47,448 bases of DNA from Patescibacteria group bacterium (GCA_049296775.1 JBAQTB010000003.1:336068-383515); one strand, 5' to 3'. Counted from the first letter of the stretch, positions 8,066 through 43,500 are shown. Numbers and translations: made by a program. Notes: generated from the sequence alone by a model not told the origin.

Positions 8066-8090
8066 GATTGGCAAAAGCGAGACTTTTACC

Positions 8091-8119: not shown

Positions 8120-8206
8120 GCTACATTACCAGTGTGAGTTATCCATCTCTGCCCATCAACAGTTGGTGAGTACAGATGGGCAACCCGCCCAATTACAGGA
8201 GAGAGC

Positions 8207-8899
8207 ATGTTTATTCTACTGGTTCTCGGCGGCCTCATGGGCTGTGTCGATTACCATTTGCAAGAAGGTACGGATCCACTCGTGGATACTGGCCTCGATG
8301 AAACTGAACCCGTGGTGTCGACCGACACTAACTGCGAGTTCATCACAAATGAGGGCGAAACTTCGGCCATGCCGATCTTCAGCCTCATCGGCAGCGACGA
8401 TTTCGAACTCCAGGCCGGCAAGAGCCTGGTACTCGAAGTCGATGTTGTCAGCAGCGATAGCTGCGGTGACATCAAGCTCAGTTTGCTCGGGTTCACCGTT
8501 CTCGATCCCCGCCCGGGCAGTCGAGAATGGATGAACCGCATCAGCCAGCGCGGGATTCCCGCTGAGCTGGTAGATGCCTACGACTACTCGGCATTCCCGC
8601 CGACAGTCGCAAATGGTGTCGCTACCACCGCTGATGGCAACACGCTCCGTTACGTCTGGCACGATGGCCAGGCGGACTGGAGCCCAGCTCAACCCGCCGA
8701 CAACATGTCGCCGGAGCTGATCGAGGCCGACAGCGGCAAGACCTACGGCTTCGTGTGGCCCGCCACGGCCTACACGCCAGCCAAGACCATTCTCGAGGTT
8801 TCACTCTCTGAAGTCTGCTGGGAGGACATCGCCACTGGCGTGTCTGTCTGCACAGACCAGGGCCTCGACGTTACGGCCACGGTACGCATCATCAGATGA
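8207..8899 (+). CDS. hypothetical acidic protein with lipoprotein-type signal
   Basis: N-terminus MFILLVLGGLMGC (lipobox-like LMGC, but no basic n-region). It has its own promoter, a Shine-Dalgarno sequence and a terminator. It is much more GC-rich than the neighbouring genes. No recognisable domain. Confidence 0.6.
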   Translation: MFILLVLGGLMGCVDYHLQEGTDPLVDTGLDETEPVVSTDTNCEFITNEGETSAMPIFSLIGSDDFELQAGKSLVLEVDVVSSDSCGDIKLSLLGFTVLDPRPGSREWMNRISQRGIPAELVDAYDYSAFPPTVANGVATTADGNTLRYVWHDGQADWSPAQPADNMSPELIEADSGKTYGFVWPATAYTPAKTILEVSLSEVCWEDIATGVSVCTDQGLDVTATVRIIR

Positions 8900-17101: not shown

Positions 17102-17332
17102 ATGCTCGATGCGGTACGTAAAGACAAGCTAACTTTGTTTGAAGTAGATTACGAACCGTACTCGGTCACATATATCCCGACCGACCGAGACCGAAGTCGC
17201 TCGAGTTCGAAGCGGCTCAAGTACATCGAGGAGAGGATTTACTACCGTCGGTACGGTCAGTATTATGTGGACGGCAAGAAAGATCGGCGAATGACGCAAA
17301 CGCGGAGGCTGAAGGATGCTTTCCGCCGCTGA
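17102..17332 (+). CDS. hypothetical small basic protein (76 aa)
   Basis: AGGGAG lies 7 nt upstream of the ATG. Arg/Lys/Tyr-rich (…RDRSRSSSKRLKYIEERIYYRRYGQYYVDGKKDRRMTQTRRLKDAFRR). No recognisable family. Confidence 0.4.
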   Translation: MLDAVRKDKLTLFEVDYEPYSVTYIPTDRDRSRSSSKRLKYIEERIYYRRYGQYYVDGKKDRRMTQTRRLKDAFRR

Positions 17333-17495
17333 GCAACTAGAGGTCGACCTGAACGGCCTCAGCCCAGAAGATCGCGAGATCGTCTTGATGACGACCCTGC
17401 GGTCATCGTTCATCGTCGATGGCACCAAGCCCGACGACCTCGTGCCTACGTCCGACTGGGACGCGATCACCACCCGGTCAGAGTTTGGCATCTAG
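17316..17495 (+). CDS. hypothetical small acidic protein (59 aa)
   Basis: Not in the ORF track. The ATG overlaps the last 17 nt of the previous ORF, and GGAGG lies 8 nt upstream. Translation: MLSAAEQLEVDLNGLSPEDREIVLMTTLRSSFIVDGTKPDDLVPTSDWDAITTRSEFGI. Confidence 0.4.
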   Translation: MLSAAEQLEVDLNGLSPEDREIVLMTTLRSSFIVDGTKPDDLVPTSDWDAITTRSEFGI

Positions 17496-22584: not shown

Positions 22585-23335
22585 TGTGACGCCAGGTCAA
22601 AGGCGAGCGTAATTGCTGAAAAATCGAGCCATCGGCAGAGGCTCTACGGTGGTAGTGTACCATGACGGCTTCTGGATAATAGATGACTTTGTAGCCGGCT
22701 TCCCAAAAACGCCAACACAAATCCGTGTCCTCAAAATACATAAAAAATCGCTCATCAAACACTCCAACTTTAGCCAGGCCTTCAGCCCGAGTAAATAAAG
22801 CGCTGCCCATCAACCAATCAACTTCATTGATCTGGTCATGGTTCATGTCTTTCATCAAAAATCGATCCACGATCTTCTTGCCCCAAGGCAGCCTGCCGAG
22901 TGGACTACGGCGCAAAATCGGAACAGACAATTCATGGTAACGGTTACATGAATATTGCAAACTCCCATCAGCATTCGATAACTTAGGACCAACGATTCCA
23001 ACCTGAGGGTTAGCCTCCATGTAATCAAACATCTTCTCCAAAGCACCCGGAGAAATAATAATATCCGGATTAAAGATCAAAATATACTTGCCCTTGGCGT
23101 GCTTAATGCCTACGTTCATGGCTGATCCAAAGCCTTCATTCTTTTTAGAAAAGTATCTAACTTCAGGGAACTCGCGATCCAGCATGTCGCGGATACCCGC
23201 CGCCGGGTTATTGTCGATCACTAAAACCTCCACGTTTAACTGTGGCGCAGCCCGCCGTAAACCTCGCAAGGTTTGACGAATGAGCCGCTGTTCAAAGGTA
23301 TGAACAATCAGGATAGAGACATCAAGAGTTGACAT
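22499..23335 (-). CDS. glycosyltransferase family 2
   Basis: VSILIVHTFEQ...VIDNNPAAG and the NPDI (DxD-equivalent) GT-A pattern. Confidence 0.75.
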   Translation of the reverse strand: MSTLDVSILIVHTFEQRLIRQTLRGLRRAAPQLNVEVLVIDNNPAAGIRDMLDREFPEVRYFSKKNEGFGSAMNVGIKHAKGKYILIFNPDIIISPGALEKMFDYMEANPQVGIVGPKLSNADGSLQYSCNRYHELSVPILRRSPLGRLPWGKKIVDRFLMKDMNHDQINEVDWLMGSALFTRAEGLAKVGVFDERFFMYFEDTDLCWRFWEAGYKVIYYPEAVMVHYHRRASADGSIFQQLRSPLTWRHIESAYKFFRKHSGQKNPREFPQLPPATV

Positions 23336-27101: not shown

Positions 27102-29282
27102 ATGAGTCAACATCTAACGATAAAATCGGCTGATCTAGTGATTCCTTCACCAAAAGGTGAGCTAGATATCCGTAGTGTGCTCCACGCTTTACCGCAAGGC
27201 AAGGGCTGGGTTTTTGGTTTATTCAGCCTAGAGTCCAAAGATGAAACGGCTAAAGAGCGGATTGCCCATATTCTACGCAGCCACCTGGAGCACTTAGCCG
27301 CTGATCTGGCGGACGAACCGAATGTCGTCAGACGTTTTGAACAAGGCTTGAGCAGAGTTAATCGTGACCTAAACAGGGCCGCCAAAGATTTATCTTTAAA
27401 CATCGATAAATTTGATGCGGTGATTGGCGTCTTAGCGGGTCATCAAATCTTCTTGTCTGGAATTGGCAAACTGAAAGCGATCTTTTTACACAAAACCGCT
27501 GAACGCAGATACGTTATTTACGAACTGGATGAACAATTTCATGTTGACCAAGCCCACACCTGGGAAAAGCCGTTGGTTGCCGTGTTGGACGGGGAATTTC
27601 ATCCCGGAGATATCTTTTACTTAGCCTCCCCTATTCCGCGACTCGCCCTGAGCTTAGACGAGCTGCAGGATATTTTAGTAACCCTGCCGCCCGCTGGAGC
27701 CCTGCAACGCATTAGGCAATTCTTACCTGCCACAGACCACTTTGGCGGTATCGCCTTCCAAGCCATGCAAGAAGATAAGACCGGTATAGTCCGCAAAGCA
27801 AATCCGATTAGCTCCCTGCAGGAATTAGAAAATACCAAGGAACAAACAGCGAATGTCCTTGGCGACCAACAAGCTGACCTAGTGCATACCGTCAAAGAAA
27901 TGGCGTCTGGCATCAGTAAAAAACTGGCTAGCCCAGGCATGCGCGGCGCGCAAACTACTGCCAAACGTGGCCTAGCCTTAACCGTCAAAGGCCTGTCAAA
28001 AGTCATCGCAGTCCTAGCTGCTCTAGTCATGAAATTACAGGGCTATCTTAAGACACGTTTTAGAGAAGCGAGAACTTCAAGAGCCTTAAGACACGGTGTG
28101 GGCAGAACCAGAAACACTAGTAAACCTGGTTTCATGGGCGCTTCTAGAGCGTTTATGCGAGAACTCTCCGCCCCGCGTAAATTCGCTGTCATTAGCTTCA
28201 TGCTGGCCATGGTGGTGATTGGCGGCGTGGTCTTTATCAACGGCGGCGAATCTGAAGGCGACAAAACAGCCCTAGCCTTTGCGACTTCAGTTAAAGCTAT
28301 TGATGACAAAATCTTAGCCGCTGAAGCTAGTTTGATTTACAGAAATACTGAAGAGGCGCAACGCACTTTAAGTGAAGCGGCAGCCGGGCTAGAAACACTC
28401 CCCCGAGACACCAATGAGCACAGCGCGGAAGCCAATCGATTAGCCAAAGCTTTAGCCGCGCTACAAGCCAAAATTAGAGGTGTCACTTTGGTTGAGCCAA
28501 GCGTCATAGCTGATCTGAGAAGTATTGACGCTAGCGCCTCGCTTCTCACTGGCACTTTGACTCCAAACGGTATCATCGCCTTAGCTGACAACTTGAATGC
28601 CTATAAACTAGATAGCTTAAGCGGGGCCTGGATTAAGCAAGAAACGGTCAACGGTCCCGTATCCAGAATCACCTCAAGTACGACCCTGCAGAATGACGTT
28701 CTAGTAGTTGACGCTACGCAGCAGCTAGCTAGACTGGACCTAACCGCACTCACCCTCACCACCGTCAACAGTGGCACTAACGGCATGGCGAGTGTGGAAG
28801 ATATCACCACCTATAACGACACCCTGTACGCTCTAACCGCTGACAGTCAGCAAGTAGTCAAAATGCGCGCCCAATACCCTAGCTTTGAAGCTGGCACGGT
28901 CTGGATCAACGCCAATACTACTGATCTAACCAGCGCTAGAGCTATAGCCATCGATTCAGATGTCTATATGCTACTCGCCAATGACATCATCAAATTTACT
29001 AGCGGACGCGAACAAGATTGGCAAACAGCCACTATCGACCCGCCGCTTTCGGCCGCCACTGATCTGTATACATCGCTTGAATCGCCGTACTTGTACGTGC
29101 TCGACCCGGCTGAAACTCGCGTCTTAGTTCTACTCAAAGCTACCGGCGCTATACAGGCTCAATACGTGAACGAAGCCTTTGGACAAGCTGTCGGTTTCAT
29201 AGTTGAGGAAGCCACCAGCAAAATCACCGTCATCACTGGCACCGAGGCCCTAGAATTTACCCCCTCGCATTTGCTCAAATAA
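27102..29282 (+). CDS. hypothetical single-pass membrane protein (726 aa)
   Basis: A ~350-aa N-terminal domain is followed by a very basic stretch, then one TM helix (FAVISFMLAMVVIGGVVFI), then a ~340-aa C-terminal domain. The positive-inside rule puts the N-terminus in the cytoplasm. No family recognised. Confidence 0.6.
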   Translation: MSQHLTIKSADLVIPSPKGELDIRSVLHALPQGKGWVFGLFSLESKDETAKERIAHILRSHLEHLAADLADEPNVVRRFEQGLSRVNRDLNRAAKDLSLNIDKFDAVIGVLAGHQIFLSGIGKLKAIFLHKTAERRYVIYELDEQFHVDQAHTWEKPLVAVLDGEFHPGDIFYLASPIPRLALSLDELQDILVTLPPAGALQRIRQFLPATDHFGGIAFQAMQEDKTGIVRKANPISSLQELENTKEQTANVLGDQQADLVHTVKEMASGISKKLASPGMRGAQTTAKRGLALTVKGLSKVIAVLAALVMKLQGYLKTRFREARTSRALRHGVGRTRNTSKPGFMGASRAFMRELSAPRKFAVISFMLAMVVIGGVVFINGGESEGDKTALAFATSVKAIDDKILAAEASLIYRNTEEAQRTLSEAAAGLETLPRDTNEHSAEANRLAKALAALQAKIRGVTLVEPSVIADLRSIDASASLLTGTLTPNGIIALADNLNAYKLDSLSGAWIKQETVNGPVSRITSSTTLQNDVLVVDATQQLARLDLTALTLTTVNSGTNGMASVEDITTYNDTLYALTADSQQVVKMRAQYPSFEAGTVWINANTTDLTSARAIAIDSDVYMLLANDIIKFTSGREQDWQTATIDPPLSAATDLYTSLESPYLYVLDPAETRVLVLLKATGAIQAQYVNEAFGQAVGFIVEEATSKITVITGTEALEFTPSHLLK

Positions 29283-30322: not shown

Positions 30323-30349
30323 AAAAAAAATTAGCGCCATCGTTGGCGC
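30323..30349 (-). terminator. terminator-like hairpin inside the rplJ leader (candidate attenuator)
   Basis: Minus strand reads GCGCCA-ACGA-TGGCGC followed by TAATTTTTTTT, ending only ~10 nt before the rplJ ATG. Confidence 0.45.
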
Positions 30350-30456: not shown

Positions 30457-30485
30457 AGATTAGCGGAGAAAATCAGCTACGTCAA
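30457..30485 (-). promoter_or_regulatory. candidate rplJL promoter
   Basis: Minus strand reads TTGACG (30485-30480) - 17 nt - TAATCT (30462-30457). The -35 box overlaps the stop codon of the upstream cohesin-like gene. It gives a ~140-nt leader. Confidence 0.45.
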
Positions 30486-31762
30486 GACTCATGGTGGTCG
30501 GAATGATCCAGATCATGATGATGCTGCAATTCCGCCTGCTCATGCTCCTCAGCTTGAATTTGACGCAAAGCCTCACGGTAACGCCTCAGCCTGTGCCAGA
30601 TGTGCAGATGGAAGAGGTAATACAAGAGCAAAATCACCAAACCAATGCCGAGCAAGACAAAGATATTATCCTTGACTAGGCGAATAATTGATGCGCCCAC
30701 GGTCACGTTAATATGCTCATCCGTGACATTCCCAGCTTTATCAAAAACTCTCACCACCACCCTAAAACGACTACCGATCAAACTCGGTAGCTGATAAGGG
30801 CTCTCTGTACGCACAAACACCGGCGATTCATCAGCAGATTGGCTAGCTTCCAAAACACCAACTTCATAATGGTCTATCCCAGAGTGTTCGTCAGTAGTGA
30901 AAAAAGAAATAAACACCTTGGCCTGCTCATTAGAAAACAGCACTTCTGACACGGGCTTAAACTTAGCCGGCGGTTGAGTATCAACACGTAACAGTAAATG
31001 GGTCGGTGTGCCCCACACGTCTTGTCTACGCGCTTTCACATGAAAATACCAAACACCGTCTGCCACATCATTGAAACTCACAATCGCGTCGCTCGTATCC
31101 GGAGTATTGTCAGGAACGGTAAACGGCTTGTTATCTAGTTCGTAGCTAAAATCGGTGACGCCGGATTGCTTCTCTAACGTCAACGTGATCGAATTATTGT
31201 TGTACCACTGATCACTAAACGGATGCGTATCTGAGTACACGTTAACCCCCTCCAATGGCCGCGGAGTGATCGAAAATGTTGCCCTCCCCAAACCGGATAG
31301 CGTTTGAGTGCCTAGACCGTCATTAGCCAAAACGCTGGAACTGGACCGGATCTCAACAACTGCCGTGCCGGGATTAATGGCTTCAAAAGTAATCGTTGAA
31401 ACTAGTCCGCTACTCGTAGTAATGCCATTTGGGATAACGCCCACCAGATGAGCTGTGCCGTTTACATTAGAATAAACGGGAGGCTCAAGCCAGATAGCTA
31501 ACAAAGACTTATCTGACGACGGCTTCACGATTCTCAGCTTGTCAGCAGGAAAACTAATATCAACCTGAACCGTATTAATGCTCTGACCCTGGGAATTCAA
31601 CAGGACTGAAACATCAAAAGTAGAACCTACGAGATTAGTTCCAGCCGCTGGTGAAAAAAATAGCTGTGTACCCTCCGTTTGCGCCTGTGTGGTGACGGGA
31701 AAAGTTGGCCAGGCCAAGCCCACCAATAGCGTCAACATTAAGCAAAAACGAAAAAAACGCAT
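30482..31762 (-). CDS. cohesin-like domain protein A (signal peptide, cohesin-like module, two further beta-rich modules, TM anchor, His-rich tail)
   Basis: Signal peptide MRFFRFCLMLTLLVGLAWPTFPVTTQA. Cohesin-like module LFFSPAAGTNLVGSTFDVSVLLNSQGQSINTVQVDISFPADKLRIV...LAIWLEPPVYSNVNGTAHLVGVIPNG. TM helix IFVLLGIGLVILLLYYLF. Tail ...HEQAELQHHHDLDHSDHHES. Confidence 0.6.
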   Translation of the reverse strand: MRFFRFCLMLTLLVGLAWPTFPVTTQAQTEGTQLFFSPAAGTNLVGSTFDVSVLLNSQGQSINTVQVDISFPADKLRIVKPSSDKSLLAIWLEPPVYSNVNGTAHLVGVIPNGITTSSGLVSTITFEAINPGTAVVEIRSSSSVLANDGLGTQTLSGLGRATFSITPRPLEGVNVYSDTHPFSDQWYNNNSITLTLEKQSGVTDFSYELDNKPFTVPDNTPDTSDAIVSFNDVADGVWYFHVKARRQDVWGTPTHLLLRVDTQPPAKFKPVSEVLFSNEQAKVFISFFTTDEHSGIDHYEVGVLEASQSADESPVFVRTESPYQLPSLIGSRFRVVVRVFDKAGNVTDEHINVTVGASIIRLVKDNIFVLLGIGLVILLLYYLFHLHIWHRLRRYREALRQIQAEEHEQAELQHHHDLDHSDHHES

Positions 31763-31768
31763 ACACCG

Positions 31769-32773
31769 CTACAACTCCGTTAATGACTTCTCAAGTTGAT
31801 CCTCTAAATTAACCAGTGCCTTTGACGCCGCCAAGACCGCAACCTTGGCCGCCTTAGGTAAGTTGCGTTGCCGACTAAGCTTTTCCAAATCATGCAAATG
31901 TTTAGCGGTGCTCAAATTAATCATTTTCAACCTGCGACTAACTGGAACTGACCTTGAGTCCCTTGGAGCGCGCCCACCCCAACCAAAGTGAGCCTTAACC
32001 AAGCCTACCAGAGCAAGCAGTACCAAACCCACCAAAGCCAAAAGCAGCAAGGCGAAGACTATGAAAATTACGAGTTCAAAAGTTTGCATGGCGCCTAACT
32101 GTTTAAATAGACCCTTCTGTTCATCTGAATCAGTTCCGACGACATCAAGACCAAAAGCTGAGGCTAAAGCGGTATGAATACCGGCTACCCTGCCAATCGG
32201 ATGCCAATCATACGCGGCTACCGGCTCAGTGCCATCACCTTCCTCCCCGATCAGAGCAGTGCCAGCGGGATTAGCTGCGAAAGCAAAGCTGGCTGCCCCA
32301 AAGTCACCAGAAATATCTGTACCGTTCCCGTCATTTGCTAAAACCAAGCCGTTTACAAAACTGAGATTAGCCGACTCTTCACCCAAAACCTCAAAGGTGA
32401 CGTTCAAAAGCTTACCGCCCGTCCCCTGATAGCCGGGATTCGGAATAAGACCTTCAAAACTCAAAGTTCCCGAAGTGTTGGAATAAGCTGGCTCACGTAC
32501 CCAGAGTTGAATCATTGATCCAGACTTTGAAACGGAAGTAATCTTGACTTGATCAGGTGGAAATTGAATCAGGGCTGAGAAAGCGCTAGCCGGCTGATCC
32601 GAACTATCCGCGTAAATACCCACTGTGAAAGATGAATGTGCCGAATACGTACCGCCACTGGGAGAAAAATACTGACTAGCTGCCTGCGCAGACACAGTCA
32701 TGGACAGCGCGCAGACTAAACTTAAAAGTATTCCCCCTACCCGCGGCGCCCACGATGCAATTTTTTCGCCCAT
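31769..32773 (-). CDS. cohesin-like domain protein B (signal peptide, cohesin-like module, TM anchor, cytoplasmic tail)
   Basis: The ATG at 32773 (MGEKIASWAPRVGGILLSLVCALSMTVSAQA) is preferred to the track's GTG at 32854. Cohesin-like module QYFSPSGGTYSAHSSFTVGIYADSS...IQLWVREPAYSNTSGTLSFEGLIPNPGYQGTGGKLLNVTFEV. TM helix FELVIFIVFALLLLALVGLVLLALVGLV. Confidence 0.6.
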   Translation of the reverse strand: MGEKIASWAPRVGGILLSLVCALSMTVSAQAASQYFSPSGGTYSAHSSFTVGIYADSSDQPASAFSALIQFPPDQVKITSVSKSGSMIQLWVREPAYSNTSGTLSFEGLIPNPGYQGTGGKLLNVTFEVLGEESANLSFVNGLVLANDGNGTDISGDFGAASFAFAANPAGTALIGEEGDGTEPVAAYDWHPIGRVAGIHTALASAFGLDVVGTDSDEQKGLFKQLGAMQTFELVIFIVFALLLLALVGLVLLALVGLVKAHFGWGGRAPRDSRSVPVSRRLKMINLSTAKHLHDLEKLSRQRNLPKAAKVAVLAASKALVNLEDQLEKSLTEL

Positions 32774-33546
32774 AGGTGACGAAGGAAAATAACTCCGACC
32801 ACTCCCAAGAAAACTAAGCCAAGTATACCCCAAAATTGATAGCCCTCGTACCACTCATGCTCAGCCGTACCAACCATCTGGACAACCCTCTCATTCCCAG
32901 CTTTATCAATAGCCTTTACCCTCACAACACGCCGCAAGTTCTGGTCGATCAAAACATGTGGGCTATTGGCCGTAACCCAGCCGCCCTGACCTTCTTTAAC
33001 CTCATACCTATCAATCCCGCTTCCCTTATCCTGAGCTGAAAAAATTACCGCCCACTGATCAAACTCGGCTGGAGAACCTAGCACGGGTGTAAAAATCTCC
33101 GGCGGCTCAGTGTCTAATGGCGCCGTGTATTCACCTACCTCACCTTCACTGACCACGGTGAATTGCAACGGGCCAGGCACAACCTCAGCATCACTCCCCA
33201 GACCATCACTCAGTAAAATACGGGTATCTTCAGCTGACAAGTTCGCTACCCCTAAGCTATTCGCTTGCAGCACCAATACGAACAGCTCAGCCCGATCACC
33301 TGAATACCCACCAGGAATGGCTCCGCTAAACTCAACTCCACCCGCCGCCGCATGTGGTCGTTCGATCCATAAACTCACGGCAGAGTTGCCATCGCGTATA
33401 TTTATAAGCCTAAAACCTTCCGGCAAGTTAATCTTGCTCTCGATAGCCGCGACGGTTTGTCCGTGCGTATCCAGAAATACGCCAACTTCAAAAGTTTCAT
33501 TAAGCGTAACGGATAAGTCTGACATGCCGAAATAAATCTGTGCCAT
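32737..33546 (-). CDS. cohesin-like domain protein C (no obvious signal peptide; cohesin-like module, DKAGN module, TM anchor)
   Basis: The ATG at 33546 (MAQIYFGMSDLSVTLNETFEVGVFLDTHGQ...), 5 nt after the dockerin-gene stop, is preferred to the track's GTG at 33609. It shares the DTxPP...SGIDxYEV...DKAGN module with protein A. TM helix FWGILGLVFLGVVGVIFL plus a basic tail. Confidence 0.55.
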   Translation of the reverse strand: MAQIYFGMSDLSVTLNETFEVGVFLDTHGQTVAAIESKINLPEGFRLINIRDGNSAVSLWIERPHAAAGGVEFSGAIPGGYSGDRAELFVLVLQANSLGVANLSAEDTRILLSDGLGSDAEVVPGPLQFTVVSEGEVGEYTAPLDTEPPEIFTPVLGSPAEFDQWAVIFSAQDKGSGIDRYEVKEGQGGWVTANSPHVLIDQNLRRVVRVKAIDKAGNERVVQMVGTAEHEWYEGYQFWGILGLVFLGVVGVIFLRHLWAKKLHRGRRG

Positions 33547-33550
33547 ACGT

Positions 33551-34882
33551 CTAGCCTGACCAGTAATAAGCCATGATCGCAAAATCGACCAAGTCCAACC
33601 TACCGTCACCGTTCAAATGATTCTGCTCCTTAATGCTAAAAGCCGGACTGAGTTCTCGCTTATACCAAAAACCCGCAATCGCAAAATCGACTAAATTAAC
33701 TTGACCGTCTTCATTTAAATCACCCTTCAAATAAGTCTCGTCTATTACGGGTACATTCTCATCTGCCACAGTAAAAGTCTGCGGAGTGCCAAAATCACTC
33801 TGTCCGGCCAGGCCGCTACTTCGGCTCATGACCGTATAATTGCCTAAACGTAAAGCCTGCGTTGGTAATGAATAACTATATTTTCCAGCTTCGTCCGCTG
33901 AGGTCTCAATCAAGTCAACGGTCTGACCGTCTAAAAAAATACTTACTAAACTAGCGGGTGCCGTTTGACCAAAAATCGAAATGCTATCACCTCTTTTTAC
34001 TTGTGACTTAGTCAGACTCAAAGTCGGAGATAGGTAAATACCGCTAATGTTTGTAATATTTTCACTAGCAATCGCTACCCTGAAGGTTCGGACCGCTGAA
34101 CGATGCCCGGCAGTATCTTCACCGTAAATCACAAAATTATATGTGCCAGTACTCAAACCAGTCAGCGCCATTTCAAAGGTACCATTTGATGCCGCTTCAG
34201 TATCTAGAGCGAATTCACCATCTTTCAGCAAAGTAATCCTACCCCTTGGAAAGGCGGTACCCGCAAAAGTCACTAAATTATCTCCAGCCTCCGTACCTCC
34301 ATCAACAGGTCCAGGTGATCCACCACCCCCGCCTCCGCCGCTACCACCAGCTCCACCGCCACCAGCCGCTACTGGCACCGAACTAACTTCAGACGAATAA
34401 GTATTCTGGTTTAAATTTGCATCGTTAACCTTAATCACAAAGTAGTAAATGGTGTCATTGGTCAGACCCGTCACAGTTGTGGAAGTAGAGACTCCAACGC
34501 TGGTATAAGTATACGGTCCACCAGAGGCCGTGGCTTGACCAACGGAATAGCTAGAAACTACGCCCCCGAAATACGTGGTTGAGGCCGTCCAGCTTAAATC
34601 CACCTCTGTATCACCAGCTGTAGCGGTAATCACCGGAGACGTAAAGTGAGCATAGCTCTCAGTACCGGCCCGACCCACAAACGCCCCACCAGCGCTGTAG
34701 CCGCTCTCAATTCTAGCACCGGTCTGTGAAAACACCGCAAACGACGAAGAGCTAGAATAACCACCCACTAAAGTTAAAAAAGGATCACGTAAAATAAAAT
34801 CGCTCCCGGAATAATCCTCCGCTAACACTAAAGCGGAAGGCCAGAGCATTGCTGCCATGAGTAACCAGGCCAAAATCCTCAT
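33551..34882 (-). CDS. secreted FN3 / Ig-like protein with a C-terminal type-I-like dockerin
   Basis: Signal peptide MRILAWLLMAAMLWPSALVLA. FN3 pattern (VDLSWTAS...VTGLTNDTIYYFVIKV). Gly linker GGGGAGGSGGGGGGGSPGP. Two Ig-like modules. The C-terminus has a duplicated Ca-loop/helix: DLNEDGQVNLVDFAIAGF and LNGDGRLDLVDFAIMAY. Confidence 0.7.
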   Translation of the reverse strand: MRILAWLLMAAMLWPSALVLAEDYSGSDFILRDPFLTLVGGYSSSSSFAVFSQTGARIESGYSAGGAFVGRAGTESYAHFTSPVITATAGDTEVDLSWTASTTYFGGVVSSYSVGQATASGGPYTYTSVGVSTSTTVTGLTNDTIYYFVIKVNDANLNQNTYSSEVSSVPVAAGGGGAGGSGGGGGGGSPGPVDGGTEAGDNLVTFAGTAFPRGRITLLKDGEFALDTEAASNGTFEMALTGLSTGTYNFVIYGEDTAGHRSAVRTFRVAIASENITNISGIYLSPTLSLTKSQVKRGDSISIFGQTAPASLVSIFLDGQTVDLIETSADEAGKYSYSLPTQALRLGNYTVMSRSSGLAGQSDFGTPQTFTVADENVPVIDETYLKGDLNEDGQVNLVDFAIAGFWYKRELSPAFSIKEQNHLNGDGRLDLVDFAIMAYYWSG

Positions 34883-34897: not shown

Positions 34898-35341
34898 CTA
34901 GTTATTAGCTTCATTTTCAGCACTTGCGCCTGCCACGTCTGGCTCCAGAGGGCTACCAGTGTCTGCACCTAAGCTGATAGGTGCTACTTCAACAATTTTA
35001 TTTGCTACTGGATCATATAAAATAGCTTTCTTGGCATTCGTATACAGCAAAACCCTGTCGCCAGTCTTGGCATTCGCAAAAAAAGTCTGGTCCCTGAGCC
35101 GTTCAGGATCAGCCACGGTAGCCACCGTAGGAGTTTCATCAGTGGGTAAAACGATTAATTTACCAACATCCATAATCAGTCTATCGACCTCAGCTGCCGC
35201 CAAAGTGTCGGAATCAGTCTTCAGCGTTTGCATTTCCAAAAATAGGTAGACGCCGGCTGCAATCGAACTCAGCAACAACAAGACTAAAACCGGCACTATG
35301 AGGCGCTTCCACCACGGTTTTCTCAAGCCTGAGTCTGACAT
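34898..35341 (-). CDS. hypothetical N-terminally anchored small protein (147 aa)
   Basis: A basic N-terminus plus TM helix (RKPWWKRLIVPVLVLLLLSSIAAGVYLFL), then a ~100-aa external domain. No family recognised. Confidence 0.5.
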   Translation of the reverse strand: MSDSGLRKPWWKRLIVPVLVLLLLSSIAAGVYLFLEMQTLKTDSDTLAAAEVDRLIMDVGKLIVLPTDETPTVATVADPERLRDQTFFANAKTGDRVLLYTNAKKAILYDPVANKIVEVAPISLGADTGSPLEPDVAGASAENEANN

Positions 35342-35413: not shown

Positions 35414-36484
35414 TCATGTCTGCATTTTGTCCTGCTCATGACTATGCTTGAACCAGATCAAAGTACGCTGTAAGCCGTCAGACAATGACACCTGAGGTGC
35501 GTAACCCAATTCGCTTCTAGCTAAACTAATATCAGGGCAACGGCGCATCGGCTCTTCATTAGGATAACCATCCGGATACGGTATTTTAGCTATAACTGCC
35601 GTCTGAACTAAGGCACACACAGCTTGAGCTAGCTCATTTAAACTGACCTCATGTGGGTTGCCGATATTATGTACCTGAGCGCCGTGCTCCGCTAGCATAA
35701 CTTGCAGAAAACCGGTGATTGCATCAGAGATATAGCAATAACTCCGTGTCTGCAGCCCATGCCCGTGAACCGGCAGAGGCTCGTCGCGTAAAGCGCAGGT
35801 TAAAAACTGCGGCACTACTCTGCGATCATCTGGACGCATGCCTGGCCCATACACATTGAATGGACGAATGATCTGAACCGGAATACCAAACAGCCGCTGA
35901 TAAGTAATGGCTAGAGTTTCACTCATGCGCTTAGATTCATCGTAGCAAGCACGAGGACCCAAAGTAGAGACTTGACCCATGTAGGTCTCAGGTGTGGGAA
36001 TGGCATGATCCGGTGGATCTCCGTAAATTTCACTGGAACTAAAGACTAAAAACTTGTGCAACTGTTGGCTTCTGGCAAACTCCAATAAGTTCTCCGTACC
36101 GTGAACTGCCGCCCGAATAGTTTCCAATGGAAATTTAGTGTAATACACCGGTGAAGCAATACCCGCCATGTGCACGATATAATCCACCTTCAAATCTAAA
36201 CTAAGTGGCGCACAAATATCCGTAGTAATGTGAGTAAAATTTAGGTCATATAATTCTCCAAAAGTATTTAGACCCGTACCCACAATCGAACTATCAATAG
36301 CGATCACTTTGCAAGGCTTGGCTAAAACATGCTGATTTAGGTGCTGTAACGCAAGCAAAAAATGACGTCCTAAAAAACCTGAACTCCCAGAAACTAACAA
36401 GGTTTTACCGCTAAGTTTATGCGCCTGAGCACCCAAAGCTTGCACTATGGCCTGCAGGTCAGCAGCTAATACTTGACCAAACAT
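35414..36484 (-). CDS. UDP-glucuronate decarboxylase-like SDR (UXS / ArnA C-terminal-domain family)
   Basis: GSSGFLGRH Rossmann motif, SSSEIYGDP, GPRACYDESKRMSE (YxxxK), DDRRVVPQF and GHGLQTRSY. These are close to the human/bacterial UXS motifs STSEVYGDP, GPRACYDEGKR, DGRVVSNF and GSQTRAF. Confidence 0.75.
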   Translation of the reverse strand: MFGQVLAADLQAIVQALGAQAHKLSGKTLLVSGSSGFLGRHFLLALQHLNQHVLAKPCKVIAIDSSIVGTGLNTFGELYDLNFTHITTDICAPLSLDLKVDYIVHMAGIASPVYYTKFPLETIRAAVHGTENLLEFARSQQLHKFLVFSSSEIYGDPPDHAIPTPETYMGQVSTLGPRACYDESKRMSETLAITYQRLFGIPVQIIRPFNVYGPGMRPDDRRVVPQFLTCALRDEPLPVHGHGLQTRSYCYISDAITGFLQVMLAEHGAQVHNIGNPHEVSLNELAQAVCALVQTAVIAKIPYPDGYPNEEPMRRCPDISLARSELGYAPQVSLSDGLQRTLIWFKHSHEQDKMQT

Positions 36485-36499
36485 ATTGCAGGGAGAGTA

Positions 36500-37744
36500 T
36501 CACACTACTTTTGGCTTTGGAATTGGCAAAATGAATTTACCCCCAGCCTGTTTAAAGGCTTGATTTTTATCCATTATCGGCTGTGCAAAATTCCAAGCTA
36601 GAATTAGCAAATAATCCGGCGGCTGCCGTTTCAAAGCCTGCGAGCTGACCACAGGAATGTGCCGCCCAGGTGAATATTTACCCTGCTTGAGCGGACTATC
36701 GTCCACAATGTAGTCCAGCAAATCTGGTCCAATACCGAACACGTTCAGTAAAGTATTCCCCTTGGCCGGTGCACCGTAAGCTGCAATTTTTTTCCCAGCC
36801 TGTTTCAAATTCGTTAAGAGTATTAGGAGATCAAGCTTATTCTGCTGAATCCGAGCGGCATATTCTGTATACAGCCGTATACTCTTCAGACCGAGACTAG
36901 ACTCAGAACGCAAAAATTCCTGAACAGCTGACTGGATCTTATGCTTAGCGGATGCGAATTTAACGTATAGCCTGATCGACCCACCGTGAGTAGAAATTTT
37001 TTGCGCATCAAAAATCCTTAGCCCATGTAGCTTAAAAAACGTATTTAAGGCTGCGACACTAAAATATGACAAATGCTCATGATAAACAGTATCAAAAATA
37101 TTTTGCTGCAAAAAATCAACCAAATAAGGAACTTCAACGATAAATACACCATCCGGCTTGAGTAAGTACTTCACGCCTGCCGTAATATCAGCTAAATCAT
37201 CAACATGAGCAAAGACGTTAGTAGCGGTCACGATATCTGCTGCCCCTACTTTGCGTCTCAACCGAGCAGCGTAAGCACCAGAAAAGAATGCTACTTCAGT
37301 CGGGATTCCTGCCCGGCGTGCCAACTTAGCCACAGCCCGGGCTGGATCTACTCCCAACACCTTTACACCGTGTCGCTTAAATGGCGCCAAGAGGATACCG
37401 TCATTCGAACCAATGTCGATAACTAGTGAATTGGCGTTAAGCGCGAAACGCTCCGTAACCTGCGCAGCTAAACTCTCAAAATGAGCCTGAAATACTGGAG
37501 AAGTAGAAGAAGCGTAAACATACTCAGCGAACATTAGTTTTGGCAGTACCACATCTTGAAGTTGCACCAAGCCACACCGTTGACACAGAAACACGTTCAA
37601 AGGAAAAAACAGCTCCGGTGCATGCAACTGTTCCTGACTCAAAAAAGCATTAGCCAAGGGTGTCTGCCCAAAAGCTAAAACCAGCTTCAATTTGGTATGG
37701 CCGCAAATACGGCAATTGGTGCGGTGTTTAATTAAGCGCGACAT
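36500..37744 (-). CDS. NDP-sugar C-methyltransferase-like protein (Zn-ribbon + class I SAM MTase + C-terminal domain)
   Basis: CRICGH...PLANAF...FPLNVFLCQRCGLVQL Zn-ribbon, then EYVYASSTSPVFQAHF, and the SAM motif VIDIGSNDG. This is the architecture of the TylC3-type sugar C-methyltransferases. The ATG at 37744 is preferred to the track's TTG at 37753. Confidence 0.6.
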   Translation of the reverse strand: MSRLIKHRTNCRICGHTKLKLVLAFGQTPLANAFLSQEQLHAPELFFPLNVFLCQRCGLVQLQDVVLPKLMFAEYVYASSTSPVFQAHFESLAAQVTERFALNANSLVIDIGSNDGILLAPFKRHGVKVLGVDPARAVAKLARRAGIPTEVAFFSGAYAARLRRKVGAADIVTATNVFAHVDDLADITAGVKYLLKPDGVFIVEVPYLVDFLQQNIFDTVYHEHLSYFSVAALNTFFKLHGLRIFDAQKISTHGGSIRLYVKFASAKHKIQSAVQEFLRSESSLGLKSIRLYTEYAARIQQNKLDLLILLTNLKQAGKKIAAYGAPAKGNTLLNVFGIGPDLLDYIVDDSPLKQGKYSPGRHIPVVSSQALKRQPPDYLLILAWNFAQPIMDKNQAFKQAGGKFILPIPKPKVV

Positions 37745-37749
37745 ATCAC

Positions 37750-38499
37750 TCAACGTTTAGGAAATAGCTTGGTTGGTAAGCCACACCAAGCGCTTAAAAT
37801 ATATAAACCCAAGACCTTAAAAGTTTGCATGGCATACACCGTTGATTTCTTGAGACTGATAGAGGTATGTTCCTCATGGTAATCACAACGCACCGGCACC
37901 TCAGCAACTTTAAAATCGTAATATTTTGCTTGAGCGATGATCTCGAAGCTGTATAGGTAATCGTCAGAGGTACCCGCGAAAGTAAGCTTATCAAAAAGCT
38001 TAGCACTATACACCCTAAATCCCGAATGAAACTCTGTTAACGGTAGCTGTAAGATCAAGCGATCGATCGTGCTCAAACCCAGATTAGCCAAATACCGCGC
38101 GTACGAAATCCCGTCCCGCAAAGGCTGCAAAATATGCCCAGCAAAACGTGAACCGAGCAAAAAATCGAGCCCTTCTGCTTCCATCTTTGCCACTGCCAGG
38201 GCCGCATCCGTACTAGCGTACTGACCGTCACCATGTATCTCAACCATATAATCAGCCCCCAGCTCTAAGGCTTTGGCCAAACCAAACTTCAGATTCCCGC
38301 CGTACCCCAAGTGAGTGTGGGTAAATGCCAGTAAACCCAAACTCTCAGCTACCGCCAGCGTATTGTCCGCTGAACCGTCGTCAACCACAATGAGCTGCGT
38401 GTATGCCGTTTTAGGTAAACGCTCCAGCGTACGCCTAAGCATATGCACGCAGTTGTACGTCATAATCACGCCGATGACTTTAACTTTATCGTCTAACAT
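37750..38499 (-). CDS. GT2 polyprenyl-phosphate glycosyltransferase-like (ArnC/Dpm1-like)
   Basis: VIGVIMTYNC...VVDDGSADNT and DGDGQY (DxD). It is short and soluble-like with a C-terminal hydrophobic segment. The ATG at 38499 is preferred to the track's TTG at 38517, and it overlaps the upstream gene by 14 nt. Confidence 0.6.
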   Translation of the reverse strand: MLDDKVKVIGVIMTYNCVHMLRRTLERLPKTAYTQLIVVDDGSADNTLAVAESLGLLAFTHTHLGYGGNLKFGLAKALELGADYMVEIHGDGQYASTDAALAVAKMEAEGLDFLLGSRFAGHILQPLRDGISYARYLANLGLSTIDRLILQLPLTEFHSGFRVYSAKLFDKLTFAGTSDDYLYSFEIIAQAKYYDFKVAEVPVRCDYHEEHTSISLKKSTVYAMQTFKVLGLYILSAWCGLPTKLFPKR

Positions 38500-40474
38500 A
38501 ATCTGGAATTGGTTCAAGTTGACGCCGCTCAGCCACGGTATCTAAATATTCTTGAATTTCTGGTCTATCCGGCTGTAAGCGTTTAGCGGCATCAATAGCT
38601 TCCTCGGCTTTATCATACAAACCCATCCGAATATATGCCGAAGCTAAAAATAAATAATTACTCCCATTCCGCTGACCATTCTCAATGGCTCGCTCTAAAT
38701 ACATCATGGCCAAAATTGGTGACCGGCCATCATCAAAGCTCAATTCCCATTCACCGAGAATTGACCAAATCTTACCTATCTCTGGCCACTCAGTTACCAC
38801 GCGTAAATATGTCTGAATACTCAAATCTGCCCGGCCAAGTAAGTTAAAGGTATCTGCTGCCAGGATTAAATCGGCTTTGTCTCCAAACTCAGTCAGATAC
38901 CCCAAACGCTCACCAGCGTTATCGTAATTCACTCCGTACATCTCAATCACCTTCTGATTCGCCGGAATGTTTCTGACGAAGATAATATTGTACACATCAA
39001 CATGCACAATCACCCATTCAGGATCATTGGCTCTTCGATACAAAAAATCCCTTAACCCCGGCGCCTGATCGTAAGCGTAAAAAAAGAGGGTATTAAATTG
39101 ATACTCAGCTTGTTTGACCCGCCAAATCTCCTCATCCTGAATCATGGGTAAATATGTCTTTTCAGTAAAATCTATAGAATAAGCATCACCAAAACGATTA
39201 TCAATGAACACTCGTTCTTGTGGGTACAAATAAAAAATTAAATAACTACCAATATCTGGATCGTTGAAAACTGGACCGTGTAAATCTTGCTCAATAAAAA
39301 ACTGAGCGGCATCAAGGGAGCGTTCCGTTAAGCCGGCACCAAGCAAAGTTCGCGGAATAATTACTCCACTGAAACGGAGTGCAACCAAAATTATCCAGAA
39401 CAAACATAAAGTAAAGATCCCCAACCTACCTAAACCTATCCATACGGCCGGGTACTTATCCCGTAATTTAGCTGACTGACCCTCAAAAACAGGACTTAAA
39501 TTAGCTGAGACCGACGGCAAAAACATGAAGCTGAAAAATGGTAAGGCGCGAATCAATTTGTAAGCCAAGAGAAAACTGGCCGTTAACCCAGCCAAGAAAA
39601 AGACTGGCCGACGGCGCCAAGCACAGAATAAAGATAAGCCAGCAATAATGCCACTCAAAAAAAAGATCGGAATAACCAGATCAGCAGTAAGAGAGCTATT
39701 ACTCAACCAGGTAGGTATAGATTGATTCTCTGCGATTAGAATTGGAAATTCTCTAAAGACATTTAGACGCAAGGAGAACAGCGCTCCCTGAATACCGTAC
39801 GGACTAACCAAACACGCCAGCGCTAAAAGCGGCGTAATAATAGCTAATTTGCGCATCAAGGGGTCAGTTCTCAAACTACCTGGAGACTGAATAATTTTCT
39901 CAACCAAAAATCCAGCCGTCATTAAGACCCCAATGCCAAAAAACAAATGTGAGTTAACCCATAAAATCTGCAGCGGTATGAGCAGATAGATAGAGTTTTG
40001 TCGCGGCTTATCTTCAGCGGAAAATAACAAGTAAATAAAGATCGCAATCAGCAAATAACTAAAAATCTCTGGGCGCACTTGGGTACGAGCGCTCAACATC
40101 AAAATCGTGGGGATTGACAACCAAGCCACGACCCAAAAATTAGCCCGTTTCAAAGTGGCGAAGAAGAGTACAGCAAAAGTAACCAGCCCAAGAATTACCT
40201 TCAGGATCACCAGGCCTCCGTAGCCAATAACCTGATACAACCAAAAGAAAACAACACTGCTCAGCCAATGATGGTTAGCGAACGGTTGCTGCGGCTCCGT
40301 GTAGGAATACAGATTTTTAGTCAGAACATCCGTGTCGCTAAACAACACGCGACCATTCTGAATCAGTCTAGGCAAATCATCTCCAATTGGGAGCTCAATC
40401 TTATGCAATAAGACTAAACCGTAAAACAGCAAAGATAAGCTCAGTACTAAAATTTTTGCCCAAGTCCAAGTCAT
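38486..40474 (-). CDS. polytopic GT-C-like (ArnT/PMT-like) membrane glycosyltransferase with C-terminal TPR domain
   Basis: Roughly 12 hydrophobic helices. An acidic DD pair sits in the first external loop (ELPIGDDLPRL), as in GT-C enzymes. A ~230-aa soluble C-terminus has TPR-like repeats (YLFLASAYIRMGLYDKAEEAIDAAKRLQPD). Confidence 0.45.
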   Translation of the reverse strand: MTWTWAKILVLSLSLLFYGLVLLHKIELPIGDDLPRLIQNGRVLFSDTDVLTKNLYSYTEPQQPFANHHWLSSVVFFWLYQVIGYGGLVILKVILGLVTFAVLFFATLKRANFWVVAWLSIPTILMLSARTQVRPEIFSYLLIAIFIYLLFSAEDKPRQNSIYLLIPLQILWVNSHLFFGIGVLMTAGFLVEKIIQSPGSLRTDPLMRKLAIITPLLALACLVSPYGIQGALFSLRLNVFREFPILIAENQSIPTWLSNSSLTADLVIPIFFLSGIIAGLSLFCAWRRRPVFFLAGLTASFLLAYKLIRALPFFSFMFLPSVSANLSPVFEGQSAKLRDKYPAVWIGLGRLGIFTLCLFWIILVALRFSGVIIPRTLLGAGLTERSLDAAQFFIEQDLHGPVFNDPDIGSYLIFYLYPQERVFIDNRFGDAYSIDFTEKTYLPMIQDEEIWRVKQAEYQFNTLFFYAYDQAPGLRDFLYRRANDPEWVIVHVDVYNIIFVRNIPANQKVIEMYGVNYDNAGERLGYLTEFGDKADLILAADTFNLLGRADLSIQTYLRVVTEWPEIGKIWSILGEWELSFDDGRSPILAMMYLERAIENGQRNGSNYLFLASAYIRMGLYDKAEEAIDAAKRLQPDRPEIQEYLDTVAERRQLEPIPDYVRR

Positions 40475-40516: not shown

Positions 40517-43500
40517 TTAAGTAGAAACAGGTGATGTTGACACTTCTGCAGGAACTGGATCTGAGCTGACAGGCTCTGATGGGGTGTTTTCTGGAGCTTC
40601 CAGAACTGGAGTCGGTAAGACCGGCTCAATCACTTCAGGCTCAACAGGGACTGTTTCAGGGTTAGCCACATTTTCCTCAGCATCTGTCTGCTCGACGACT
40701 GGCTCGCCGCCAGTGTCCCCCACCTCATCAGTTTCACCAGCGATCTCTGGCTCAGGTACGGTGAGCTGTTCGCTTGGAACATTATCCTCAAGTGGCGCAA
40801 AATCTGGGTTTAAATTGTCTGGCGTAGTGGCATCAAATGGATCGATTACAGCCCCATTCGTAGGTGGCTCAGAAATTACCGGCGGCTGGACAACCGGAGC
40901 GCCAACGCTAGACTCAGCTAAACCAGCGTCCTTAATGGCCAAAGCAATCCAACTAAACCGTAGATCAAAGGGGGCAGCTTGACTGAGTGTCACAGTAAAG
41001 CCCGTCGTACTCTTGTCTGTAATGACATAACGAAGGTCACTGGCTAAGTATGCTTGCTCTGCCGCTGCCATATCCGCAATCAATGTCTGATCAGCAGCCT
41101 CAAAGTTCACGCTGGCCTGAACAACCGGCTGAGTCAGATATGCTTCTGTAAAATTCACTCTAACCTGCTTAGCGCCCGCGTGAATCAAGGCAAAACCGCC
41201 CATGTCAGCGTTAAAGTAAGGTCTACCGATCACCACTAAGTCGCTCAAGAAAGTTACCGCGTTGCCAAATGAACCGATCGTATCCACTTTTATTCCACCC
41301 GCAAAACTCGCCAAGCCCTGCACGGACAGATCGCCAGCCAAATCTAGGAAAGCCATGTTTAGGCCGGGCTGATCTTCCACCGCCGTAATCCTACCGAGTA
41401 AATCGGTCAAGCTGCCGTCTGTGATAACCACAGACGCTTCCACAGCAGCTAAACGTAAATCTAGCGCCTGCAAGCCAGCCAGCATCGAATCATTAATGAT
41501 CAGCTGGGAATCAATATGCTGATTAAGTGTAGCTAATAACGTTGTCGATTGCCCAGTCACTTGGCCGGACAGAGAGAGCGCGTAACTCTCAACCGCCGCG
41601 ACCATATCCCTCACATTCACCAAGTCAGCTGCAGTGACTTCCGTAGTATCGCTACTCAGGCCATCAACAGCGTCAGACAAAACCGCGATTCTGTCAGCGA
41701 AAATATCCAGGCCCGTGATGGTGTTGGCGTTGAAACTATCAGCCGTGACTGTGCCACGGAAATAGGCGTTGCCGGTAGCGTCAAAGCGAATAACTGCATC
41801 GTCTTCCATGATATTTTCAGGCTCTCCGTCAGCTTGAATCGCCGGTATTGCTGCCGGCCCCTTAATCACAAACTCTCCGTCAGCATTCAAAACCACCTGA
41901 AGCTCGGTACCAGTGACTGGCATCAAGATATCTGTCTGCACGGCGTTAGCGATGACTCTTGGAGTAATAATCTCCAGTCCGGCCGCAATTCTATCGGCTG
42001 AAATCTCAGAGAGTTCTAGTTGATTAGATAGTGCATCTTTTTGATGCATGAAATACTGCAAGGCTTGAGTGCCAACATCTGGTAACTCCAATGTTTCGCC
42101 GACCGTCTCAGTATCCGTAAGCGCTTCTGCACCTGAATCAGGTGGCGCCACTAAGCCAGAAAGTAAAGTCTTAATTGAAGAACCGTTAGCGTAACTGGTC
42201 TTAATGAAGGCTGTTACAACTGGCAATTCCTCATATGCGCCCGCGTAACCGGTAATCGCCTGACCTACAACCTGACCAGCCTTAGTAGCCCGCATCGCCA
42301 CACCCGGGACAGATGAACTAGTTAGCAAGTCTCCAGGCTGAATCGGGCCATTTTCAATGGAGACTTTTACCGGTACACGACCAGCCAAAGCCACCACAGC
42401 TGCGCGTTTACCATAATCCTCAATACTTCCCATGACGATACTCGGTGCAGTAGAGATGACACCAATCGCCGTTGGGTCATACGGACCCGTACTCTTCTTA
42501 ACCCCGGCTATCAGGGTTGGATCTAAAGACACCACGTCACCAGGCACGATCTCGTCATCATTAGTGGAGTAAATTTCCGCAATGTCAGCGCCAGTGCCCT
42601 TGATGGTCCATACACGTACCTCTCCGCGGCCGCCGGTTCCACCGTTACCGCCGTTTTCACCAGAAGCACCACCACCAGCACCACCACCAGCACCGCCGCC
42701 CAAAGCGCCTCCATCCCCTCCAATTGCTCCAACACCAGTAGCTACTCCACCTCCACCACCACCTCCACCACCGATGATACCGGTTCCGGCAGTACCGGCA
42801 GTACCAGCCGTACCGCCAGAAGTACCACCCGCCGCCCCAGTGTTAGACGTATAAGTACCTGCCAAGCCACCATTACCACCACCACGACTTGGGCCATTAG
42901 CACCAGCGCCACCTCCGGCACCACCCCTCAATGAGCCGCCACCGCCGCCAGAAGTGGTAGTGCTTGTACCACCGCCGCCAGCTCCACCAAATTGAGCGTT
43001 ACCTCCACCGGCTGCGTTGATTGTTCCGCCACCGCCACCCGCACCAGAAGCGTTAACAGTTGCGGGCAGAGGTCCACCACCGGCCACATTGGTGGTGCTA
43101 CCGTTGGTACCTACGCTTGATTCTCCACCTCCACCACCACCGCTGCTCACTGTAGCCGCCACCTGTCCGGCTCTACCGCCACCGCCACCAAAAGCTTGTT
43201 GATAAATAGTTCCAGTACATGCCGCACCAGTACTAAAACAACTTGACGCGCCCGGATTACCAGGAGACCCAGCATTGTTGTTCGAAGTGGAGCCAGCACC
43301 ACTCGCACCACCTGCACCAACGTCAACTTCAACTGTAGACGCTAAATCAGAAGCATCGAAATACTTTTCCACGTACGCTCCGCCACCGCCTCCGCCACCG
43401 CCGGCTCCAACAGCATTATTACCCCGTCCACCACCGCCTCCGCCACCGCCGGCTCCAAAGATTTTAACGAAAACTAGAACTGCATCGGCTGGTTTTGTAT

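Follow-up and report, generated by a model that had tools for sequence, protein, structure and literature searches.

The 47,448-nucleotide stretch of a Patescibacteria group bacterium analyzed here (GCA_049296775.1, JBAQTB010000003.1:336068-383515; hereafter, the window) carries on its minus strand five close-packed genes, S147-D-C-B-A, of which D encodes a secreted protein ending in a dockerin and C, B and A encode proteins with a cohesin and a membrane anchor. The open reading frames (ORFs) of D, C, B and A were found at the coordinates assigned to them in an initial annotation of this DNA, made from the sequence alone, all of them on the minus strand. The unit reaches to at least 35341, past D, with the gene of a small transmembrane (TM) protein, S147, lying 15 nt upstream of it. 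S147 and D are separated by 15 nt, D and C by 4 nt and B and A by 6 nt, and C and B overlap; this tight packing, together with a terminator-like site after A, suggests that the five genes would constitute one operon-like cassette. The features of interest are as follows:

33551-34882, minus strand: D, secreted dockerin protein of 443 aa (Pfam, AlphaFold2)
33554-33727, minus strand: dockerin module of D, with two F-hand repeats
32737-33546, minus strand: C, cohesin protein of 269 aa (hhalign, profile matches to PDB cohesins)
31769-32854, minus strand: B, cohesin protein, ORF of 361 aa (Pfam Cohesin E=0.035, A-family profile)
30482-31762, minus strand: A, cohesin protein of 426 aa (AlphaFold2, Foldseek, Pfam matches of orthologs)
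34898-35341, minus strand: S147, small TM protein, ending 15 nt upstream of D
30334-30349, minus strand: terminator-like hairpin and T-run between A and rplJ (consensus scan and sequence)
40517-47278, minus strand: giant Gly/Thr/Ala-rich, fibre-like protein of at least 2253 aa (conserved C-terminal module)

The start of C is most likely the ATG at 33546 (MAQIYFG), 4 nt past the stop codon of D; a GTG at 33609 is disfavored because it would only read dockerin-coding DNA in another frame. For B, the most likely start is Met28 (around 32773), with which the protein gains a signal peptide. The GC-rich hairpin followed by T8 at 30334-30349 lies 22 nt upstream of the start of rplJ, beyond which come rplJ itself and rplL. 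A transcription unit S147-D-C-B-A might end at this hairpin, which may serve as the terminator of the cassette, as part of an L10 leader, or as both.

Domain composition of the dockerin and cohesin proteins

Protein D comprises a signal peptide (residues 1-21), a conserved segment modeled with low confidence (18-75), an fn3 domain (85-168), a Gly-rich linker (177-199), two Ig-like domains (202-283 and 292-373) and a C-terminal dockerin (386-443), and its Pfam matches are fn3, Big_6, Big_13 and Dockerin_1. The initial annotation had described a duplicated Ca-binding loop plus helix at the end of D, and two 22-residue loop-helix repeats are indeed found there, at residues 388-409 (DLNEDGQVNLVDFAIAGFWYKR) and 422-443 (HLNGDGRLDLVDFAIMAYYWSG), with the helix of each reading LVDFSI(A/M)AY. 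Loop 1 is canonical: the ligands at positions D1, N3, D5, N9 and D12 (D388, N390, D392, N396 and D399) are each present in 40-43 of 43 orthologs. Loop 2 retains N/S at position 3, D at position 5, D/N at position 9 and D at position 12, and has K, H or R at position 1, never Asp, in the same 43 orthologs. Near-invariance of the Ca ligands and of the helix residues fits what would be expected of a conserved interface, and D orthologs end invariantly in ..YYW(T/S)G. In the AlphaFold2 (AF2) model of D (mean confidence score, pLDDT, 80.5), the C-terminal helices 397-406, 413-422 and 431-439 are predicted at a pLDDT of about 90. A Foldseek search with the whole model was swamped by FN3 tandems, and was thus uninformative for the 60-aa dockerin.

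The D family is large, with more than 560 homologs of about 440 aa. A search of its profile against 1.84 billion representative sequences returned 2586 matches at E<=1e-30, a count inflated by fn3-rich giant proteins; the top 150 include many D-type representatives of about 430-450 aa, as well as variants of about 350 aa and about 600 aa. Identity among D orthologs of different classes stands at 40-45%. The segment at residues 18-75 (34660-34830) is conserved, carries repeated S-x-x-F and S-x-S-F motifs and ends in GF(L/E)YFP, with AF2 confidence below 50, and may fold only upon a partner. When it was sought in other proteins, only D orthologs and one fragment were recovered, and the variants of about 350 aa seen in other genomes have neither this segment nor the fn3 domain.

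Proteins A, B and C share an N-terminal module, put at some 130 aa in the initial annotation and at about 135 aa here, in which the blocks W..(E/R)P, G.IP.G and L(A/L)(N/S)DG.G(T/S) can be recognized. The resemblance is borne out by BLASTP comparisons of A with B (33% identity over 146 aa, E=3e-19), of A with C (E=2e-12 and 6e-9) and of B with C (E=4e-12). Each of the three proteins has a single hydrophobic helix near its C-terminus, followed by an Arg/Lys-rich sequence, as had been stated before, and the positive charge after the TM helices places the cohesins outside in topology predictions, in agreement with the membrane anchoring assigned to them earlier. The module DTxPP...SGIDxYEV...DKAGN, which had been pointed out in A and C, is also present in both proteins and comes close to NCBIfam NF047446 (OmpL47-type beta-barrel domain; cut-off 40 bits), against which C scores 38.4 bits (E=1.2e-9) and A 18.5 bits; in the AF2 model of A the same region forms a beta domain.

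The identification of these modules as dockerin and cohesins is clear at the level of the families. Among the window proteins, D scores 21.7 bits against Dockerin_1 (PF00404), just below the cut-off of 22.9 bits, and only B is matched by Pfam Cohesin (PF00963; E=0.035), the domain not being detected by this model in A or C of the window. Dockerin_1 is, on the other hand, matched by 39 of 43 sampled D orthologs (best E=3.9e-9), and Cohesin by 42 of 48 orthologs of A (best E=2.9e-9) and by 6 of 40 orthologs of C (best E=3.3e-6). The check by profile hidden Markov models (HMMs) that the initial annotation had put forward is hence positive for the families, through the orthologs of D and A, and negative for the window proteins, which fall short of the Pfam cut-offs. 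Profiles built from the families likewise match solved structures: that of D, the dockerins 2y3n_B (E=7e-5), 5nrm_B (E=2e-4) and 4fl4_A (E=2e-3); that of A, 5g5d_A (E=0.01); and that of C, the cohesins 5aoz_A (E=8e-5) and 5m2o_A (E=3e-4). The C and A families align to each other in hhalign with a probability of 100% (E=5e-46), from the cohesin through the Ig-like domain to the TM helix, and B of the window is recovered by the A-family cohesin HMM with 90.7 bits (E=5e-28).

Structure prediction, also suggested in the initial annotation, points in the same direction. The AF2 model of A (pLDDT 89.4) comprises three beta domains between a signal helix and a long TM helix, and its N-terminal domain, all-beta over residues 32-166, superposes in Foldseek on solved cohesins with target-based TM-scores (TMt) of 0.74-0.82: 2vo8 (0.82, root-mean-square deviation 2.6 A), 1g1k_A (0.74, 2.9 A) and 6kgf_C (0.74, 2.9 A), followed by 2vn5_C at 0.69. 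The second-best match to A overall is the cohesin-FN3 construct 2w1n (E=4e-10). A was the cohesin protein chosen for modeling, and the cohesin fold of B and C is predicted by homology.

The three cohesin proteins differ in what lies beyond the shared module. Protein A, with more than 1245 homologs, has a signal peptide, the cohesin (32-168), a conserved middle beta domain (175-262), a putative OmpL47-type Ig-like domain (268-355), a TM helix at about 363-386 and a cytoplasmic tail of about 40 aa. In the numbering of the 361-aa ORF, B consists of a signal peptide, a cohesin (57-193), a short low-complexity spacer, a long TM segment (258-289) and a helical cytoplasmic tail of about 70 aa; it is shorter here than in other genomes (361 aa versus an ortholog median of 474), having lost the Ig-like domains of its orthologs. 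No Pfam family matches the middle domain of A or the tail of B. The hydrophobic stretch of B at residues ~258-289 (31988-32083) is unusually long and contains a direct peptide duplication, LLALVGLV occurring twice. Protein C is made up of a cohesin (1-133), a putative OmpL47-type Ig-like domain (~143-225), a TM helix (235-256) and a basic tail of 13 residues.

Signal peptides are found on D, B and A, whereas C of the window has none and begins at the mature N-terminus, with Met directly ahead of it and the deletion being clean. About 70 other C orthologs carry a classical signal peptide with an A-x-A end directly before the same motif, while C lacks it also in the closest relatives (loci L001, L002 and L005), the signal peptide of C having been lost in this lineage. 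The cohesin of C may consequently not reach the outside in this genome. A recoding event (frameshift or readthrough) fusing D to C was considered and rejected, since the offset between the two frames varies among relatives, being +1 in the window against +2 in L001 and L005; the sites of D stop and C start lie at 33540-33555 in the window, at 780 in L001 and at 7097 in L005.

Conservation of the cassette and its genomic neighbors

A scan with the D-family profile over one genome per GTDB species yielded 325 confirmed loci, of which the best 80 were kept and inspected, ORF-level annotation of the loci being made with the window proteins. The order D, C, B-type gene and, often, A is the same nearly everywhere in these 80 GTDB Patescibacteria species genomes. 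Within the Paceibacteria, the cassette occurs in Kaiser-, Wolfe-, Zambryski-, Nomura-, Taylor- and Harrisonbacteria, and it is also found in Uhr-, Magasanik-, Buchanan- and Peribacteria; among its carriers is the co-cultured Ca. Microsyncoccus archaeolyticus PMX.50 (locus L073). Many cassette-bearing co-assembly metagenome-assembled genome (MAG) records (L006-L018 and others) are titled 'uncultured Gammaproteobacteria', 'Planctomycetia' or 'Saccharibacteria'. Such titles are probably placeholders or errors, rather than instances of the cassette outside Paceibacteria/ABY1-type lineages, and their apparent unreliability makes the taxonomic breadth beyond the named lineages of the candidate phyla radiation (CPR) uncertain.

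Cohesin genes lie downstream of D in all 62 loci with at least 5 kb of sequence on that side, in numbers of two (44 loci), three (16 loci) or one (2 loci). A neighbor-joining tree of 177 cohesin modules resolves three clades that follow gene position: a C clade of 80 modules, 78 of them directly after D; a B clade of 71 modules, 67 of them second after D; and an A clade of 26 modules, mostly third or nearby. The cohesins of C, B and A are therefore three ancient, separately conserved orthogroups. Two loci, L061 and L065, each have one ORF with two cohesin modules (L061:4248-5993 and L065:6871-9471). In both, the TM helix of C is followed by KRRR and then by the signal peptide of B, an arrangement that keeps the topology and would leave both cohesins outside. 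These C-B 'fusions' were considered as Rosetta-stone support for a dockerin-cohesin contact and rejected as such, because they are run-together ORFs of the form TM-KRRR-signal peptide.

Clustering of the ORFs flanking the cassette retrieved four recurrent families only: D (83 loci), the cohesin proteins (80), S147 (34) and the giant protein (24). According to HMM searches of the ORFs, the dockerin of the 47-kb window, out of a contig of 383 kb, is confined to D and its cohesins to A, B and C, and no further dockerin or cohesin was found up to 10 kb from the cassette in 83 loci, the 83 dockerins detected belonging all to D orthologs. The giant protein contains neither module in the window or in the 83 loci.

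S147 has an N-terminal TM anchor and a conserved external domain of about 75 aa (VGKLIVLP..E.PT.ATV.DP..L..Q.FF..A..GD.VL.Y), for which no Pfam or PDB match was obtained. HMM searches place a homolog directly upstream of D in 33 of the 69 loci with room for it, and L004, L026 and L030 have two or three tandem, diverged copies of S147 in that position. The giant protein is matched by Pfam only weakly (Gly_rich_2), with no family assigned to its C-terminus. The final ~700 aa recur as a conserved C-terminal module in giant proteins that precede the cassette in other genomes, and an HMM for this module places it no more than 8 kb upstream of D in 21 of 53 loci. The giant protein is loosely associated with the cassette and not part of its core. 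Elsewhere, the giant proteins adjoining the cassette reach 5047 aa and show in their conserved C-terminus a poly-Gly stretch and a coiled-coil-like region. That of the window has a TTG start and no signal peptide, and is possibly truncated or mis-started. In other genomes the giant gene abuts S147 directly, whereas four genes intervene here on the minus strand (35414-40474), encoding an NAD-epimerase/dehydratase, a C-methyltransferase, a GT2 glycosyltransferase and a TPR protein with about 10 TM helices. These inserted genes may modify sugars on surface proteins.

The remainder of the window is ordinary chromosome, with the F-type ATP synthase operon and the genes for TIM, RRF, a tRNA synthetase and MreB, and it also encodes a DUF4012 protein, several glycosyltransferases, an epimerase and a C-methyltransferase. 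Among the 32 window ORFs scanned, which leave aside those at 8037-8534, 17129-17491 and 22499-23335 (of at least 110 aa and not nested within a longer ORF), no glycoside hydrolase (GH) was detected; nor was a GH or a carbohydrate-binding module (CBM) identified by Pfam in D, A, B and C or in the other window ORFs scanned. The non-cellulolytic character proposed in the initial annotation is thus upheld, the cassette being surrounded by housekeeping and glycosyltransferase genes. On the plus strand, 27102-29282 encodes a protein of 726 aa that belongs to no Pfam family and has two hydrophobic segments in its middle part. This protein has 74% identity to its counterparts in the close relatives L001 and L005 and is absent from the flanks of all other cassettes.

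A proposed surface complex and its alternatives

The cassette is probably a conserved cell-surface assembly rather than a cellulose-degrading machine. In the arrangement that we favor, and that we regard as reasonably probable, D would be docked on one or more of the three cohesins as part of a membrane-anchored complex at the cell surface, a contact that we infer from the domains and their constant association. C, B and A would behave as type-I membrane proteins, embedded in the cytoplasmic membrane by the C-terminal TM helix, with a cytoplasmic tail that is basic or helical. On the outside, the N-terminal cohesin would be carried at the far end of a stalk made of one or two Ig-like domains. 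Protein D, lacking an anchor, would be exported by the Sec pathway, and its putatively Ca-binding C-terminal dockerin would plug into the cohesin of C, B and/or A. The location of the cohesin distal to the TM anchor, and of the dockerin at the extreme C-terminus of D, provides a geometry that fits such docking. The Ig-like domains of D, its Gly-rich linker, its fn3 domain and its N-terminal segment would then project outward, plausibly through the wall, so that an anchor and D together would make up a chain of about seven beta domains from the membrane. The three cohesin proteins would be fixed, non-redundant subunits rather than alternative sites, as can be argued from their being ancient orthogroups, each at a fixed position after D. 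No catalytic domain was detected in S147, D, C, B or A, and the complex might on this account be structural or adhesive, contributing to envelope architecture or to the presentation of surface fibers. Together with the 40-45% identity of D across classes, the same result favors a structural, envelope- or fiber-presenting role over that of a fast-evolving, host-specific adhesin.

Several observations weigh against this proposal. The proteins D, B, C and A of the window all score below the Pfam gathering thresholds, and their identity rests on orthologs and structure; the canonical Asp at position 1 of the second loop is missing in all D orthologs; one dockerin for three cohesins is an unusual ratio; S147 and the giant protein neighbor the cassette in only about 40-50% of loci; and, with C devoid of a signal peptide, at least one of the putative receptors may not be exposed. 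The low Pfam scores and the degenerate second F-hand would also suit an explanation in which D and the cohesin proteins do not pair with each other at all, the cohesin folds acting as Ig-like spacers, glycan binders or homo-oligomerization domains and the dockerin of D attaching to a wall polymer, to the giant fiber protein or to the host surface. Cohesin-like and dockerin-like modules do occur singly in many genomes, non-cellulosomal representatives being present in all three domains of life, and an essential dockerin protein of Southlakia, discussed below, has no cohesin neighbors. We nonetheless hold a lack of mutual pairing to be unlikely, given that the sole dockerin strictly co-occurs with, and adjoins, the sole cohesins in every locus examined and that the fold matches are to bona fide dockerin-binding cohesins.

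If pairing is accepted, A, B and C could still substitute for one another as membrane receptors of D, and possibly of other dockerin proteins encoded elsewhere, in the manner of the single-cohesin anchoring scaffoldins of cellulosome producers, which is close to the three alternative docking sites inferred in the initial annotation. The conserved module blocks and the topology common to the three proteins would be compatible with such redundancy, as would the two near-identical dockerin repeats, because near-identical repeats in type I dockerins permit dual binding modes. Position-specific orthogroups of ancient origin, kept apart across the phylum, are however not expected of redundant copies. 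In addition, the 83 loci have no second dockerin protein within 10 kb, and C lacks a signal peptide here. On these grounds the notion of alternative sites does not stand well, and redundant docking appears to us rather improbable. A receptor function proper, in which the cytoplasmic tails of B (~70 aa, helical) and A (~40 aa) would report the binding of D or of a host ligand inward, seems very unlikely: the tail of B is conserved between the window and L001, and the model of A shows a long continuous helix through and past the membrane, but the tails match no known signaling domain, that of C is just 13 residues long, and no kinase or regulator recurs in the neighborhood. The docking of D on non-redundant cohesin proteins might, finally, be extended to a phylum-wide housekeeping surface organelle, with C and B, together with A, forming a hetero-oligomeric membrane base, the two near-identical repeats of D bridging two different cohesins simultaneously, and the N-terminus of D, which points outward and is conserved but disordered by itself, holding S147 or the giant, lectin-tipped fiber protein in contact with the host. 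This more elaborate version is speculative, and we give it only a small chance of being correct.

Relation to known systems and significance for the Patescibacteria

The proposed arrangement resembles that of single-cohesin anchoring scaffoldins, such as SdbA, OlpA and OlpB of Clostridium thermocellum and ScaE of Ruminococcus flavefaciens, in that a cell-bound cohesin would tether a secreted protein ending in a dockerin. As in those systems, the dockerin has two F-hand repeats, predicted to bind Ca, and the cohesin fold is matched, the structures retrieved with the C-family profile (5aoz and 5m2o) being cohesins of R. flavefaciens scaffoldins. The cassette departs from them in its anchor, a C-terminal TM helix instead of S-layer homology (SLH) domains or sortase; no SLH match was found by Pfam in the proteins, and no LPXTG motif is visible in their sequences. 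It also differs in a cargo composed purely of Ig and fn3 domains, in having three fixed cohesin orthogroups for one dockerin, and in its host, a patescibacterium of reduced genome. Compared to the cellulosome, there is no multi-cohesin scaffoldin, each protein having one cohesin, no CBM, and no GH in the ORFs scanned.

The non-cellulosomal cohesin-dockerin pairs of the Clostridium perfringens glycoside hydrolases GH84C/NagJ and GH33/NanJ (PDB 2w1n and 2vo8), which are among the best structural matches to the N-terminal domain of A, serve to bring secreted proteins together in a setting other than the breakdown of cellulose. In that case the modules belong to secreted enzymes, which they join into toxin complexes, while the cassette has no enzymes, its cohesins are anchored in the membrane and the set makes up a conserved operon-like unit. 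Cohesin and dockerin modules of Bacteria and Archaea without cellulosomes are mostly isolated and of mostly unknown function. Unlike these scattered modules, the dockerin and the cohesins of the cassette are invariably neighbors, whose order is fixed and whose conservation extends across a phylum, which makes their pairing testable. Within the Patescibacteria, a dockerin-domain envelope protein rich in Ig domains, SEML1_0315, has been reported as essential by transposon sequencing (Tn-seq) in the saccharibacterium Southlakia epibionticum (Cell 2023, PMC10633639). This protein, of 927 aa, is encoded between a hydrolase gene and a tRNA gene without adjoining cohesin genes, and its likeness to D is one of domain content.

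The identification of the domains is not in itself new, since relatives already carry the labels 'cohesin domain-containing' and 'dockerin type I repeat-containing' from the NCBI pipelines. A full-text search of the literature combining dockerin or cohesin with CPR, Patescibacteria, Parcubacteria or epibiont did not find the cassette, its gene order or the three orthogroups described, and the conserved cassette and its three cohesin orthogroups thus appear to be undescribed. As a cohesin-dockerin anchoring system using a TM helix as the anchor, it would be the simplest found in nature, of use when cellulosomal systems are to be compared and as a component in the design of surface display.

The Patescibacteria are ultrasmall and make up a large share of bacterial diversity. 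To our knowledge, every member cultivated to date lives attached to other cells, and we know of almost nothing established about their envelope and attachment except for the type IV pili of the Saccharibacteria. In this context, the cassette represents a concrete, testable surface complex, strongly conserved, with recognizable docking modules and with genes whose order is fixed in no fewer than 80 species genomes, and the co-cultured Ca. Microsyncoccus archaeolyticus PMX.50 is a member of the group that bears it. Should the organelle version of the proposal hold true, the cohesin-dockerin pair would be the core joint of the CPR attachment apparatus.

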